Shown: positions 56,434 to 61,739 of the stretch, piece after piece | Layout of the letters: every line of letters starts with the position of its first letter | How positions within the stretch are numbered: the stretch's first letter is position 1 | From: Mercenaria mercenaria | Taxonomy: Eukaryota | Reading direction: 5' to 3' | Length of the DNA stretch: 64,000 bases | NCBI RefSeq assembly: GCF_021730395.1 | Contig: NC_069372.1 | Location: 62,847,754 to 62,911,753 of the forward strand | Position numbers and translations under genes: made by a program | The notes under the pieces: generated by a model | Databases searched by the model: none | The model's input: only the letters and a program-made list of their open reading frames with translations | Told to the model about the DNA's origin: nothing

Positions 56434-57582
56434 ATGGAAATGTGTGATAAAAATAATTTGGAATTATACCTGAATGATGTTTTTGAAAAGGAATGTGTGT
56501 TCAAAATTGAACAAAATGAAGTGGAATTCATTCAAACTGGCATAGAAAACCTTGCTCAAAGGATAGTAGACTTGGTTCTAGATGATTTGAGCAGAAATCA
56601 AGAAATGAAAGAAAGTTTACCAAAGAACTCACTTCTTCGCAATTCGGAAATTATAAAAGTGGGTAGTTACTACGAGGGAACAAAAAATAAATTCCCAGAT
56701 GAATTTGATATCATTTTTTGTTTTTATGAGCAAAAAGGATCTACATTTTTTAGTTATGCACCCGTTACTAACGTTATTAAACAAGTGTGCAACAAACATA
56801 AACGTGTCTTAAGGTACACAGACACCCGTTGCGCAAAACAGAAGATTGACTTTAAGAAATATGTTGAAAAACATGGCCCAGCAACATGGCTGCGTTTTAT
56901 TTACACGAGTAGAATGGGTGAAAAGAAATGCATCGATGTTGATCTTGTCCCTGCCAGTCGAGTGTGCATTACAGAAAGGGAGCATATATTAACTGTGACT
57001 GAAATTTGCCCATTGGTGCCTTTTCGGCCGGAAATTTTGTCAACCGGAAGTTTCTTAGTCGTCGAAGACAATTTCTCGTTCACCGAGACGGAAGTTCATT
57101 TTATGAGGAATGTATTGTCTAGAAATCACGCCAAGGTGTACAGAATCCTTAAGCAGCTGATAAACGGGCACAGCGCCGAGAAGGTTTACAGAGACGGTTC
57201 AATGTCTTGTTATACCTCGTATGTGATTAAGTCCATCATGATAGAGCATCACTATCGGTGTAAAAGATCCGTTACGGCAGATATCCTAGTCGGACCGTGT
57301 TTATTGCAGGTTTTAGACACACTAGGCTCTTTCGAGTACGATACCCACCTGCCCAAATTGGTTGCACAAAGGATGAGGGGACCATCGATCGTACCCGACT
57401 TCTTTTCAGGACTTTTTCTCAGGAGTTACCTACAGTCTATGACAACAACATTAAGGTCCATGCAAAACTCAAGAAGTGGATACGATTATGAAAGAGATCG
57501 AATTACGAAGTCTTTGTTGGAGCAGTACTTAGACGAAAATGGAAAACCGGAGATGCAGTTTGATTTTTGCACATTGTTATAG
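56434..57582 (+). CDS. cGAS-like receptor / Mab-21 family nucleotidyltransferase (cGLR), copy 1, apparently intronless
   Basis: 382-aa ORF. VGSYYEGTKNKFPDEFDIIFCF matches the cGAS/Mab-21 GS…[DE]h[DE]h NTase motif (compare human cGAS GSYYEHVKISAPNEFDVMF). There is a downstream IDVDLVPAS third-acid motif. A TATATAT lies ~40 bp upstream. Confidence 0.75.
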   Translation: MEMCDKNNLELYLNDVFEKECVFKIEQNEVEFIQTGIENLAQRIVDLVLDDLSRNQEMKESLPKNSLLRNSEIIKVGSYYEGTKNKFPDEFDIIFCFYEQKGSTFFSYAPVTNVIKQVCNKHKRVLRYTDTRCAKQKIDFKKYVEKHGPATWLRFIYTSRMGEKKCIDVDLVPASRVCITEREHILTVTEICPLVPFRPEILSTGSFLVVEDNFSFTETEVHFMRNVLSRNHAKVYRILKQLINGHSAEKVYRDGSMSCYTSYVIKSIMIEHHYRCKRSVTADILVGPCLLQVLDTLGSFEYDTHLPKLVAQRMRGPSIVPDFFSGLFLRSYLQSMTTTLRSMQNSRSGYDYERDRITKSLLEQYLDENGKPEMQFDFCTLL

Positions 57583-57640
57583 TTATTTGACACACATCCC
57601 GTCATGTGCAGCAGGATAGATTTTCTTAAAGACCTGCTCC

Positions 57641-57846: not shown

Positions 57847-60593
57847 TTTAAACGCAACAGTAGTATAACGTTGATACTGTATAAACTAAAAAATTGCAAA
57901 ACATTAATACATGCATTCTTCTATCAGAACTTTTTTAGTAATCATTTAATTAATACTACTTCAAATGTATAATATATATATATAACGAGAGTACATTTTT
58001 TTTTAGTTTATGTTCATTAAAACATCAATGTTGTTAATGAATCTTGTTGATAAGTGTTGTTTCTGCTGAACTACAAAATATGACTTTTGAAATGTATATG
58101 ATTTTACATTGTCTATATACATATAATACAGCGCAGACATGCTTAATATATTTGTAGTATATCGTCGGAAAAAAATGAAGAACAATTAAGCTTAAAGACA
58201 TACTTCACTTGTTTCATTCAGGGACCGAAGGAAATATTAAAATACTCGGTACTAAAATGCACATTTTGTTTTTTGTATTTGCTATTTTGTATTATAAATA
58301 CAAAATATATTGGCAATAAAATTGATTTTATCTGTTGAACTTCCAAGTATACTGCTCAATGTTTTGCTTGTATGATTAGCTCAGTGAATAAAGCTTAAGA
58401 TTTTCACGAGTTTAGTTCAGGGTCAAGCAAAGATTTTCTATTGACATTTTTACAATATTTTACAGCCGAATATAGGCTTTTCCCCTAGTCCTAGCCAAAA
58501 AAAAGCTATGTTTTCGCCTTAAGTTGTCTTTCCCTTGTAATTAAAACAAAAAGGTTCCGTAATGTACATAGTGAATCATTTTACGATTGTTGGAGTTTAT
58601 ACATTTTCAAACTCCAGTCATCAAATTAACGACTCGTGACTGCTATTTATGTCCCGCTTACTGTATTTACTTCTCATTACATGCCAAAGTTCAAAAGTAA
58701 ATTGGCATCAGTTCTTCCAAATCATTGTAGGACTGTTTCTGTTATGATAACATTCTAAGGTCTATGTTTTCAAATTTGGATTTCCCCTGTTTGGAGTACG
58801 TAGCGCTCTATTCTTTTCAAAAGAAAGACACATGTCGTTTTAAAATATCAAAACCAATCACTTTCTGTGTAGAACCACTAACCCTCTGGAAACCAATTAA
58901 AAGGCTTCCTCACATGACGACCCGAGCTCATTGTCACAGGGGCAAATATTTTTTCAAAATTAAGTTTAAGTGTATATGGCTCATGGACCAATACTGTATC
59001 CTAGGTACGTTACTGCCACCTGTGTTACTGACAATTGTAAAAAAGGCATGCGCGCCATCAGCTCGATAAGGTTATAACATGAAATCGAACAATTTTTGTT
59101 ATAATCTGTGAAGAAAATATAAAGTCTTTTTCTGTTCTCTCAAAAGTATTATTTTTTATTTTCGACCTTTTATTTCTGGAACGTCGATATGTCTATGCAT
59201 TACCTTTTCACTAAGTTTCAGTTTATTTCTTTTCTTTTTTTTAAGTATTAAAATGCAGATTAGCCTTCGAAATTAAAAGATTTTGTATCGATCATTAACA
59301 ATTTATACACTACAAGGAAATATTTCGGTTTATCTCGTTTCATTTCTTTTGCAAAGATGATTAGTACACATATTCAGCAAAGTAATTACACTATATTACA
59401 TATTAAAATAAACGTGATTTGTCAAGTTATACAACTAGTGCTTACATTACTGATAAAGCTGGGACGTTTACTTCCCGTCGCATGTTGTAGAAAAAAAGAG
59501 ATGAACTGTTACTTGTTTTAATCATAATTTCCATAAACACAATGCATTAGGACCTTTTTAGATGAAAAAAGTGGTTTCTACATTTCTACATACTATAGTT
59601 AGACTATTTTTACTTCAAAAGGTTAGAAATATAGATGTGATTGTAATTTTGAGAATTCATTTCATAATACTTTGAGAAATTGTTGTTTAAACGTTTGTGA
59701 GTCTAGTGCATAGAAAACTGAACTGATTATCAGGCGTTAATTTAGCACATAACTATATAACGTGCAAAAATATGACAAAGTCGTTCATTCTCTGGTTTGG
59801 CGTATTCTTCCATAAGTTATGGACAACTTCCCCACATTATTCACTGGAAGAAGACGAATAAATTCAGATGCATTGTCTTTTGTCAAATAGTTAAAGCTAC
59901 TCGCCCACTGTTTGGGTTAAATTATTCAACATGTTAATTTCCACCAAGTTTGGCATACAATGATTATACGACACTGAAAAATGATAAAATGGGTGTAGAT
60001 AAAAGTAAGATATTGGTGAAATTGCAAGAAGAATGTAAATAATCTGTATTACTTTTGCAAATATCTTGCTAAAATCGTATTGTTAGTTAGTCCCTTTTTA
60101 TATATCATTGAACTTTGCACAACAACTTACTGAGAGAAATCTAGAATTATTCACGGAAGGTTTTGAATATTATCTGCAATGAAAACATTTTATTCCCGCG
60201 CATCTTTTATTGATATAAATACCAGTAATGCCGACTAGGTTTACAATTATTTTATCTTTTTGAAAAAAAAAATCCTGACATTTTTATAATTTTGTAGTCT
60301 GGGTTTATTTTTTCTTGGCACATAATATGCACAATTTGAATAGCCACAGGAGCTATATCCTATGAACAAAACAGTGTATGGACATAGACTACACGGAGAC
60401 GTGTTTACGTCACTAACACAATAGTAGCTTGACATTGCACAAATCAGCCACCATAGTTACGTATCAGCAGTATATAATATGACTCATACATTCGTACAAC
60501 ATGATATATATGTTGATTACTGCGTGTAACATATGGACAGCTATCGGTATATCATTCACGTACGTTTTAAACTAAGCATTTGAAGGCATAGAA

Positions 60594-61739
60594 ATGTGTG
60601 ATAAAAATAATTTGGAATTGTACCTCAATGATGTTTTTGAAAAAGAATGTGTGTTCAAAATTGAACAAACGGAAGTGGAATTCATTCAAAATGGCATAGA
60701 AAATCTTGCTCAAAGGATAGTAGACTTGGTTCTAGATGATTTGGGCATAGATATAATAAAATGGAGAGGAAGTACAGCATACAAGACACTTCTTCGCAAT
60801 TCGGAAATTATAAAAGTGGGTAGTTACTACGAGGGAACAAAAAATAAATTCCCAGATGAATTTGATATCATTTTTTGCTTTTATGAGCAAAAAGGAGATG
60901 CACTTTTTAGCTATGCCCCCGTTACTGAAGTTATTAAACAAGTGTGCAAGAAACATAAACATGCCTTAAGGTACACAGACACTCGTTGCGCAAAACAGAA
61001 GATTGACTTTGAGAAATATGTTGAAAAACATGGCCCAGCAACATGGCTGCGTTTTATTTACAGAAATAGAAGAGGTGAAAAGAAATACATCAATGTTGAT
61101 CTTGTCCCTGCCAGCCGCTTTTTCATTACAGAAAGGGAGCATCTGGTAACTGTGACTGAAATTTGCACGTTGGTGCCTTTTCGGCCGGAAATTTTGTCAA
61201 CCGGAAGTTTCTTAGTCGTCGAAGACAATTTCTCGTTCACCGAGACGGAAGTTCATTTTATGAGGAATGTATTGTCTAGAAACCACGTCAAAGTTTACAG
61301 AATCCTAAAGCAGTTGATAAACGGGCACAGCGCCGAGACAGTTTACAAAGACGGTTCAATGTCTTGTTATACCTCGTATGTGATTAAGTCCATCATGATA
61401 GAGCATCACTATCGGTGTAAAAGATCCGTTACGGCAGATATCCTAGTCGGACCGTGTCTATTACAGGTTTTAGACACACTAGGCTCTTTCGAATACGATA
61501 CCCAAGTGCCCAAATTGGTTGCACGAAGAATTAGGGGACCATCGATCGTACCCGAATGCTATTTAAAACTTTTTCTCAGGAGTTACCTACAGTCTATGAC
61601 AACAACATTAAGGTCCATGCAAAACTCAAGAAGTGGATACGATTATGAAAGAGATCGAATTACGAAGTCTTTGTTGGAGCAGTACTTAGACGAAAATGGA
61701 GAACCGGAGATGCAGATTGATTTTTGCACATTGTTATAG
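60594..61739 (+). CDS. cGAS-like receptor / Mab-21 family nucleotidyltransferase (cGLR), copy 2
   Basis: 381-aa ORF, ~90% identical to copy 1. It has the same GSYYEGTKNKFPDEFDIIFCF and NVDLVPAS motifs. A 15-aa patch is replaced (GIDIIKWRGSTAYKT vs SRNQEMKESLPKNS). Confidence 0.75.
   Translation: MCDKNNLELYLNDVFEKECVFKIEQTEVEFIQNGIENLAQRIVDLVLDDLGIDIIKWRGSTAYKTLLRNSEIIKVGSYYEGTKNKFPDEFDIIFCFYEQKGDALFSYAPVTEVIKQVCKKHKHALRYTDTRCAKQKIDFEKYVEKHGPATWLRFIYRNRRGEKKYINVDLVPASRFFITEREHLVTVTEICTLVPFRPEILSTGSFLVVEDNFSFTETEVHFMRNVLSRNHVKVYRILKQLINGHSAETVYKDGSMSCYTSYVIKSIMIEHHYRCKRSVTADILVGPCLLQVLDTLGSFEYDTQVPKLVARRIRGPSIVPECYLKLFLRSYLQSMTTTLRSMQNSRSGYDYERDRITKSLLEQYLDENGEPEMQIDFCTLL

Follow-up and report, generated by a model that had tools for sequence, protein, structure and literature searches.

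A tandem pair of single-exon cGAS-like receptor genes with a predicted C-terminal membrane-targeting signal in Mercenaria mercenaria

The window examined in the present study, a stretch of 64,000 nucleotides of the Mercenaria mercenaria contig NC_069372.1, contains two ORFs on the forward strand which the initial annotation described as a tandem pair of intronless cGAS-like receptor (cGLR) genes. Both ORFs were recovered at the positions given below, each encodes VGSYYEGTKNKFPDEFDIIFCF, and the two copies share 87% protein and 93% DNA identity. The genes and their surroundings are as follows:

2521-5043: LINE-type RT/endonuclease ORF, far upstream of the genes
23751-24527: RT fragment, far upstream of the genes
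55729..58927, + strand: duplication unit A, comprising gene 1 flanked by ~0.7 kb on the 5' side and ~1.3 kb on the 3' side (self-blastn, repeat search)
56302..56316, + strand: TATA-like element GTATATAATATGACT, ~130 nt upstream of the copy 1 ATG, a candidate core promoter
56434..57582, + strand: cGLR paralogue 1 (copy 1), complete single-exon CDS of 382 aa
59181..62968, + strand: duplication unit B, comprising gene 2 with flanks
60470-60484: copy 2 TATA-like element, identical to that of copy 1
60594..61739, + strand: cGLR paralogue 2 (copy 2), complete single-exon CDS of 381 aa

The 4.16-kb tandem duplication originally reported is real, with starts lying 4154-4158 bp apart across the ORFs, but the unit is not uniform. 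Self-blastn aligns units A and B over three blocks (79%, 91% and 86% identity), interrupted by a stretch of about 700 (709) bases present only in unit B (59650-60358) and by a second indel of ~110 bp. The 709 bases have no other copy within the window and are therefore not identifiable as a mobile element. A tblastn search of the whole window found no third gene copy or fragment, and the window contains no recognisable STING gene. The locus had also been called transposon-rich; this holds for the two RT-type ORFs far upstream but not for the DNA adjoining the genes, which is rich in satellites and repeats and contains no recognisable transposon protein.

The original interpretation would have been overturned if the ORFs were parts of a larger gene, and several observations show that they are not. 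A stop codon lies in frame 21 nt 5' of the ATG in both copies, the N- and C-termini match those of full-length relatives, and the predicted structure is a complete two-lobed enzyme. The absence of introns is likewise borne out by relatives, whose ORFs run uninterrupted on metagenomic genomic contigs (P0023, P0001 and P0005). A poly(A) tail is missing from the Logan contig of P0002, which thus offers no sign of transcription. The second ATG of copy 1 (56440) is the probable start codon: at the position of the first, copy 2 has ATA. A 97-aa ORF directly 5' of copy 1 and in the same frame (56113-56406) was considered as a lost N-terminal extension and rejected: two stops separate it from the copy 1 ATG, and its copy 2 counterpart is riddled with stops and not conserved.

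The cGLR superfamily has been delimited by the Pfam Mab-21 domain (PF03281; Culbertson & Levin 2023, PMC10732462), and a search with this profile, proposed in the initial annotation as a check, gave a mixed result. As single sequences the two window proteins scored 16 bits (E=0.013) and 14.8 bits against a gathering score of 24.1; sub-threshold Mab-21 matches were obtained for 15 of the 27 family members, the best with E=2e-4. Single-sequence Pfam and PDB searches returned only sub-threshold or weak matches, and a family profile was required. Searched against structure chains, this profile placed the oyster receptor Cv-cGLR1 (8gjw_A) first (E=2.4e-10, query 75-345, chain 51-348), followed by ~40 cGAS chains and with no match to OAS. 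An hhalign comparison with a set of bivalve proteins, distant relatives found via the family profile and including members above the gathering scores of PF03281 (Mab-21) and PF20266 (Mab-21_C), gave 100% probability (E=3.7e-41, 316 columns). Structure prediction, also suggested at the outset, yielded a two-lobed nucleotidyltransferase matching human and mouse cGAS in Foldseek (E=7e-11). None of the outcomes named beforehand as refuting was obtained, although on a strict reading the Pfam search came close to one. As the direct Pfam match lies below the gathering score, membership is based on the profile and structure evidence, and the weak match looks like a limit of model sensitivity rather than a missing domain. 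PADLOC contributed no useful support, giving a marginal 'oligonucleotide-cyclase' match for copy 1 (E ~0.02) and none for copy 2.

The named relatives all come from bivalves, and the close ones are without exception annotated as 'uncharacterized' or 'hypothetical', the clade being missed by standard Pfam annotation; one cluster mate, from Mytilus coruscus, carries the UniRef name 'Mab-21-like nucleotidyltransferase domain-containing protein'. The window ORFs are genuine cGLR paralogues, a kind of gene already known in bivalves. The context first suggested for them, an expanded and diversifying repertoire, agrees with the literature, in which some bivalves have >200 cGLRs (PMC9980059). We consider it likely that the pair are young tandem paralogues of a bivalve-type single-exon cGLR clade with the Mab-21 / CD-NTase fold.

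The segments that define the active site and part of the C-terminal lobe are located as follows:

56662..56709, + strand: copy 1 catalytic motif G77-S78-x11-E90-F-D92 (aa 77-92), the metal-binding GS...[DE]h[DE]
56935..56955, + strand: copy 1 third catalytic acid D170 in DVDLVPA (aa 168-174), family-invariant and aligned with IDVDLVPA of Cv-cGLR1
57217..57231, + strand: copy 1 S262-Y263-x-x-K266 in the C-terminal lobe, aligned with SYHxK of cGAS and Cv-cGLR1
60819..60866, + strand: copy 2 catalytic motif GS-x11-ExD (aa 76-91)
61092..61112, + strand: copy 2 third catalytic acid in NVDLVPA (aa 167-173)
61374-61388, + strand: copy 2 equivalent of the SYxxK segment

Both copies thus have the Mg-binding GS…E.D motif and the downstream VDLVPA acid noted earlier, the latter as (D/N)VDLVPA, and in the alignment the copy 1 GS...ExD motif and GSYYDRTKIDYNDEFD of Cv-cGLR1 correspond position by position. 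The published cGLR active-site pattern, h[QT]GS[X8-20][DE]h[DE]h[X50-90]h[DE]h (Li et al. 2023, PMC9980059), is found in both copies as K-V-G77-S78, x11, E90-F-D92-I, x75 and V-D170-L (copy 1 numbering). The sole deviation is a V before GS where Q or T is published, a position that is not strict, since the crystallised and active Cv-cGLR1 has S there. Across 27 sequences G77, S78, D92 and D170 are invariant and E90 is present in at least 90%; in the family alignment K266 is invariant and S262 nearly so. The catalytic set is invariant or nearly so even in relatives down to 31% identity. We are highly confident that both copies are cGLR-family enzymes with an intact active site, their activity being predicted.

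Differences between the copies are concentrated in two short surface patches, aa 322-327 and a longer N-terminal one:

56587..56634, + strand: hypervariable patch 1 (aa 52-67), covering the last part of the N-terminal spine helix and the loop leading into the GS strand

Together the patches contain 23 nonsynonymous and no synonymous differences, and patch 1 is the region of greatest length variation in the family alignment. A compensated frameshift as the origin of patch 1 was rejected, as reading either copy in its alternative frames gave nothing similar to the other. The concentration of differences in these patches is consistent with diversification of specificity, as judged from the two sequences.

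With dS between the copies at ~0.11, the ORFs could be open merely through the youth of the duplication, and the genes be decaying duplicates that were dead on arrival. Whole-gene dN/dS is 0.59, a value which partly relaxed constraint also fits; the surroundings are repeat-rich; and the coding part is no better conserved than the 3' flank (93% versus 94.5% identity), so that the case for selection is limited to dN/dS and ORF integrity. On these two counts, however, the data speak against decay: outside the two patches dN/dS falls to 0.34, 381 codons remained open despite 80 substitutions in only 1.5% of neutral simulations, and the sole internal CDS indel is a single in-frame codon (3 nt) in patch 1, compared with many gaps in the flanks. 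Furthermore, the catalytic residues and the C-terminal CaaX box described below are intact in both copies, and the duplicated unit takes in the upstream region with its identical TATA-like element. Each reading frame is open and selectively maintained, decay is improbable, and both genes are probably functional.

Nucleic-acid-sensing cGLRs, whether of dsDNA or dsRNA, have a pI >8.5 (PMC9980059). The window proteins have a pI of ~7.2-7.5 and the family a median of 6.3, marking a neutral to acidic clade; whole-protein pI reflects the charge of the ligand-binding surface only roughly. The N-terminal spine is strongly acidic, and residues 111-180 are basic with a net charge of +10. Because the clade is neutral to acidic and the spine acidic, the activating ligand may be something other than a nucleic acid.

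Both proteins end in the same four residues, followed directly by the stop codon:

57568..57579, + strand: copy 1 CaaX box CTLL, a predicted geranylgeranylation signal in a disordered tail
61725..61736, + strand: copy 2 CaaX box CTLL

The box has Cys at -4, an aliphatic a2 and L at X, an ending which favours GGTase-I, and tail residues 374-382 are flexible in the predicted model (pLDDT <50). The CaaX box is a motif of four residues only. Neither this box nor the non-basic charge of the clade had been noted in the initial annotation. Among 49 close full-length sequences (47 database relatives at 200 bits or more plus the two window copies), 11, window copies included, have Cys at -4, compared with two of 41 more distant sequences; 11 of the 49 have a C-terminal hydrophobic segment, and 27 have neither CaaX nor hydrophobic tail. 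Within the window's own clade Cys at -4 is present in all five members (the two copies, P0001, P0002 and P0003), so that the motif is kept among relatives more often than chance would give. CaaX endings occur across at least six lineages, e.g. SKRKKSRRCNVL, YRKTKACKIL and KCFCVLI. In several relatives the box is accompanied by a second signal, either polybasic or an extra Cys; beside CTLL in the window copies there is neither a polybasic stretch nor a second Cys.

Because CTLL constitutes a CaaX box, geranylgeranylation and a location on the cytosolic face of a membrane would be probable outcomes, and we put prenylation or membrane anchoring of the window proteins at slightly better than even. 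Open-access papers on cGLRs mentioning prenylation, CaaX or transmembrane segments did so only in OAS1 or STING contexts, an absence that is no proof of novelty; a predicted C-terminal membrane anchor appears to be undescribed for cGLRs. The motif suggests that the pair are membrane-tethered innate immune sensors.

By analogy with the cGLR family, a ligand would bind the back face of the NTase core and close the active site, the closed enzyme would join two NTPs into a cyclic dinucleotide, and this product would activate a STING receptor. Geranylgeranylated CTLL would hold the proteins on the cytosolic membrane face, in parallel to prenylated OAS1 p46, and relatives in the clade would reach the membrane by CaaX boxes or by hydrophobic tail anchors. 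We regard a cyclic-dinucleotide-to-STING immune role as moderately likely on these family grounds. A Mab-21-fold protein could instead serve a non-immune or non-STING role, as a membrane-bound scaffold or regulator of the MiD49/51 type or a MAB21L1-like developmental factor, with the catalytic residues merely binding nucleotide. Such a role seems unlikely, given that an oyster cGLR with demonstrated biochemical activity is nearest in both structure and sequence, that the catalytic set persists (nearly) unchanged in relatives as low as 31% identical, and that lineage-specific expansion, tandem duplication and hypervariable patches typify immune receptors rather than conserved developmental genes. 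The idea that the proteins are OAS-like enzymes, prenylated like OAS1 p46 and making linear 2'-5' oligoadenylates for an RNase L-like effector, is very improbable, as OAS1_C (PF10421) is absent from the window proteins and their closest similarity is not to OAS.

A broader version of the immune reading is that the whole bivalve clade is tethered to the cytosolic face of endomembranes by CaaX boxes or tail-anchor helices, responds there to a ligand other than free nucleic acid and makes its cyclic dinucleotide beside membrane-bound STING. We advance this only tentatively and think it rather doubtful; candidates would be some constituent of viral replication organelles, or a ligand that is cationic or associated with lipid. 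If true, clade-wide tethering would give the cGLRs an equivalent of prenylated OAS1 p46, an architecture apparently undescribed among them, and real anchors would make subcellular placement a second axis of cGLR diversification beside ligand and product. cGLRs are a major, mostly orphan family of animal pattern-recognition receptors with hundreds per bivalve genome, and as two more cGLRs the pair adds little. Its value is in flagging a Pfam-missed clade with recurrent C-terminal membrane-targeting signals and without the basic charge of nucleic-acid sensors, to which the conserved CaaX box and the two hypervariable patches would, if the anchors are real, offer a compact, directly testable entry point.

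Among known systems the closest is the Crassostrea virginica receptor Cv-cGLR1 (PDB 8GJW), which synthesises 2'3'-cUA when activated by dsDNA (Li et al. 2023, PMC9980059). Structural identity to the window proteins is only 18%, and these differ in being near neutral, with an acidic N-terminal spine and a CaaX ending. Human and mouse cGAS share the fold and catalytic triad, and the likeness to the cGAS motif claimed at the outset stands, GSYYEGTKNKFPDEFD of the window proteins resembling GSYYEHVKISAPNEFD. Unlike cGAS, the window proteins have no basic disordered N-terminus, are non-basic, end in a CaaX box and are encoded by an intronless gene; on sequence alignment they also show no counterpart of the cGAS Zn-ribbon insertion, which would separate the SFTETE strand from the KVYRILK helix. 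MiD49 and MiD51, which are not nucleotidyltransferases, have an N-terminal TM helix as their anchor, whereas the window proteins retain the catalytic residues and have their lipid-anchor signal at the C-terminus. The box of human OAS1 p46 is CTIL, compared with CTLL in the window copies. OAS1 differs in belonging to another family of the superfamily, with OAS1_C, and in making linear 2'-5' oligoadenylate that acts through RNase L rather than STING. It is, like the window proteins, a CD-NTase-fold innate sensor with a C-terminal CAAX box, which directs p46 to endomembranes and whose prenylation is required for antiviral activity (PMC10683996). Closely related forms exist with and without the box, as do P0005 and P0006 in the window family.

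The two tandem cGAS-like receptor (cGLR) genes proposed in the initial annotation were located at exactly the coordinates assigned to them, as open reading frames in the same orientation:

56434-57582, + strand: copy 1, ORF call of 382 aa
60594-61739, + strand: copy 2, ORF call of 381 aa

Both copies contain VGSYYEGTKNKFPDEFDIIFCF and (D/N)VDLVPA, and the duplication is a direct one, with a gene start-to-start spacing of 4154-4158 bp. The copies are 87% identical in protein and 93% in DNA sequence, and are carried on two duplicated DNA blocks, unit A (55729-58927) and unit B (59181-62968), which align in three matching blocks of 79%, 91% and 86% identity. 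A stretch of approximately 709 bp lying upstream of copy 2 (59650-60358) is present in unit B only and has no second copy anywhere in the window, representing either an insertion in B or a deletion in A. The duplicated 5' flank includes a GTATATAATATGACT element, ~130 nt upstream and identical in both copies, which points to an origin of the pair by DNA-level tandem duplication rather than by retroposition. Searching the entire window with tblastn recovered no further copies or fragments of the genes.

The ORFs are best regarded as complete genes and not as exons of a larger one, based on an in-frame stop 21 nt upstream of each ATG, N- and C-termini matching those of full-length relatives in a 27-sequence family alignment (A1), and a copy 1 model predicting a whole two-lobed enzyme. 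An intronless structure is indicated by three relatives on genomic metagenome contigs, P0023 (on a 226-kb contig), P0001 and P0005, all of which are uninterrupted ORFs. Completeness is also indicated by a 97-aa ORF upstream of copy 1, whose counterpart in copy 2 is full of stops.

Assignment of the pair to a family depended on profile-based comparison. Named relatives of both proteins are all from bivalves (Mercenaria, several Mytilus species and Mactra), and the nearest database relative, at 66% identity, is metagenome-derived, which makes a bivalve with proteins outside the searched collections the most likely source. The Mab-21 match anticipated for these proteins was not obtained with single sequences, which scored 16 and 14.8 bits against a Pfam gathering score of 24.1; none of 29 first-pass homologues has a precomputed Pfam domain, and the best single-sequence PDB match was weak (8gjw_A, 'cGAS-like receptor 1', E=0.006). 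Used as a search profile, A1 matched the same chain with E=2.4e-10, spanning both lobes (query residues 75-345, chain 51-348), followed by ~40 cGAS chains, and OAS was absent among its matches to PDB chains. A HMMER search with A1 of 1.84 billion cluster representatives identified 515 relatives at E<=0.001, including 70 at E<=1e-30. The distant relatives P0097, P0100, P0105 and P0121 score above the Pfam gathering thresholds for Mab-21 and/or Mab-21_C, and an alignment of 14 such distant bivalve Mab-21 proteins (A2) matched A1 with 100% probability (E=3.7e-41, 316 columns). UniRef already lists a 90%-cluster mate, a Mytilus coruscus sequence, as 'Mab-21-like nucleotidyltransferase domain-containing protein'. 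The clade to which the window copies belong escapes Pfam-based annotation. Among the relatives, P0114 (Mercenaria LOC123526330) has a UBA domain after the cGLR core, and P0048 (909 aa) has a >500-aa C-terminal extension.

The nucleotidyltransferase fold and active site are both present. AlphaFold2 models copy 1 with confidence (pLDDT 84, pTM 0.84), and the top Foldseek match of the model in the PDB is cGAS (E=6.7e-11, TM about 0.55); further structural matches include the Tribolium dsRNA-sensing cGLR (18.3), DncV (18.2) and MB21D2 (17.8), with OAS1 (16.8) and cGAS (16.7) ranking below MB21D2. Li et al. define cGLRs by the motif h[QT]GS[X8-20][DE]h[DE]h[X50-90]h[DE]h, two-lobe homology and AF2 structural homology (PMC9980059). 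The window proteins read K-V-G77-S78, x11, E90-F-D92-I, x75, V-D170-L, the single departure being V at the Q/T position, where the active, crystallised Cv-cGLR1 has S. G77, S78, D92 and D170 are invariant in A1 and E90 is found in >=90% of its members, while SYxxK in the C-terminal lobe aligns with SYHxK of Cv-cGLR1 and cGAS. The cGLR interpretation is supported. Judged by sequence, the Zn-ribbon insertion of cGAS is missing from the window proteins. At a location differing from that of the ribbon, H272, H273, C276 and C289 are invariant in 27/27 family members (copy 1 57247-57300, aa 272-289, and the copy 2 equivalent), as is the corresponding H..C..C pattern across A2; these positions may form a metal site or structural cluster in the C-terminal lobe.

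Between the copies (dS=0.11, dN=0.065, dN/dS=0.59), nonsynonymous divergence is concentrated in two patches, codons 52-67 and 322-327, which together hold 23 nonsynonymous and no synonymous changes; excluding both, dN/dS is 0.34. The first patch falls where family members differ most in length, in the loop joining the N-terminal spine helix to the GS strand, and its explanation as a compensated frameshift was rejected on testing. When 80 random substitutions were placed on the coding sequence, the frame stayed open in 1.5% of simulations. Since the coding sequence (93% identity) is no better conserved than the 3' flank (94.5%), the case for function is made by dN/dS, ORF integrity and intact motifs.

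Both proteins carry CTLL immediately before the stop codon, a predicted CaaX box absent from the initial annotation, in a tail that the model leaves disordered (residues 374-382, pLDDT <50). A CaaX box with X = L favours geranylgeranyltransferase I. Tails were surveyed in 49 full-length sequences, comprising the two window copies and 47 relatives from the databases, all with family-profile scores >=200 bits. Cys at -4 was seen in 11, and a strongly hydrophobic, tail-anchor-like C-terminal segment of ~19 residues in 11 others (P0022 and P0038 are examples of tail-anchored relatives); only 2/41 more distant relatives have Cys at -4. In a neighbour-joining tree the Cys is kept throughout the window clade (5/5: both copies, P0001, P0002 and P0003; 46-66% identity), and CaaX endings occur in at least five other lineages. 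Sister sequences can differ in the presence of the box (e.g. P0005 vs P0006). Several of the lineages show classical second signals beside the CaaX box, either polybasic stretches (SKRKKSRRCNVL, which ends P0048, and YRKTKACKIL) or extra cysteines (KCFCVLI, CCPFC, FCSCV). Judged from these sequences, the CaaX motif is not an isolated coincidence, and clade members repeatedly bear putative C-terminal membrane-targeting signals.

The window as a whole is AT-rich (~35% GC), and its remainder contains the following features:

2521-5043, - strand: LINE-type ORF of 840 aa, reverse transcriptase and endonuclease
14575-15054: CCT-rich microsatellite
15143-16552, + strand: 469-aa ORF with N-terminal C2H2 zinc finger, P-loop ATPase and acidic tail
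23751-24527, - strand: separate reverse transcriptase fragment
44853-45915: 145-bp satellite, 7 copies
50416-50936: 157-bp repeat, 3 copies
63585-63993: GCT-based repeat, extending to the window end

Apart from the LINE-type ORF and the reverse transcriptase fragment, the window contains no recognisable transposon protein. The P-loop ATPase gives matches to packaging ATPases (Pox_A32 and Adeno_IVa2), and its ORF is possibly what is left of a Polinton/Maverick-like or viral element; adjoining ORFs have no Pfam matches. The microsatellite accounts for a local GC of 0.45. A 66-bp unit repeated in tandem approximately 150 times (29050-37879 and 38119-39087, - strand) accounts for a GC skew of +0.6 over 30-38 kb. 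The long minus-strand ORFs of this array encode a 22-aa Thr/Pro-rich repeat (TPHTISPTAILAPRNTPPTATL) with no Pfam matches, and the array has the appearance of a very large exon of the mucin-like PTS type.

The cGLRs that sense dsDNA and dsRNA have a pI >8.5, and non-nucleic-acid ligands have been suggested for acidic members (PMC9980059). The cGLR domains of the window proteins have pIs of 7.5 and 7.2, within a family with a median of 6.3 and values >8.5 in only 5/49, and net charge is -8 over the first 56 residues (spine region) and +10 over residues 111-180. These values weakly favour a ligand that may be something other than nucleic acid. We infer that the proteins are catalytic, and likewise their product, prenylation, ligand and role in immunity: most likely, a membrane-tethered cGLR would respond to its ligand by making a cyclic dinucleotide destined for STING.

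Taken simply as a further pair of bivalve cGLRs, the finding is expected. Li et al. give repertoires of 247 in Mercenaria and >200 in both Crassostrea virginica and Dreissena (PMC9980059). The added value lies in a non-basic, Pfam-evading clade of intronless, tandemly duplicating genes with two hypervariable patches and recurrent putative membrane-targeting tails. In the open-access literature searched, cGLRs are mentioned together with prenylation, CaaX or a transmembrane anchor only in OAS1 or STING contexts, and within that literature the C-terminal anchor appears undescribed for cGLRs. The nearest precedent is OAS1 p46, a member of the sister family, in which the CAAX box is needed for antiviral activity (PMC10683996).
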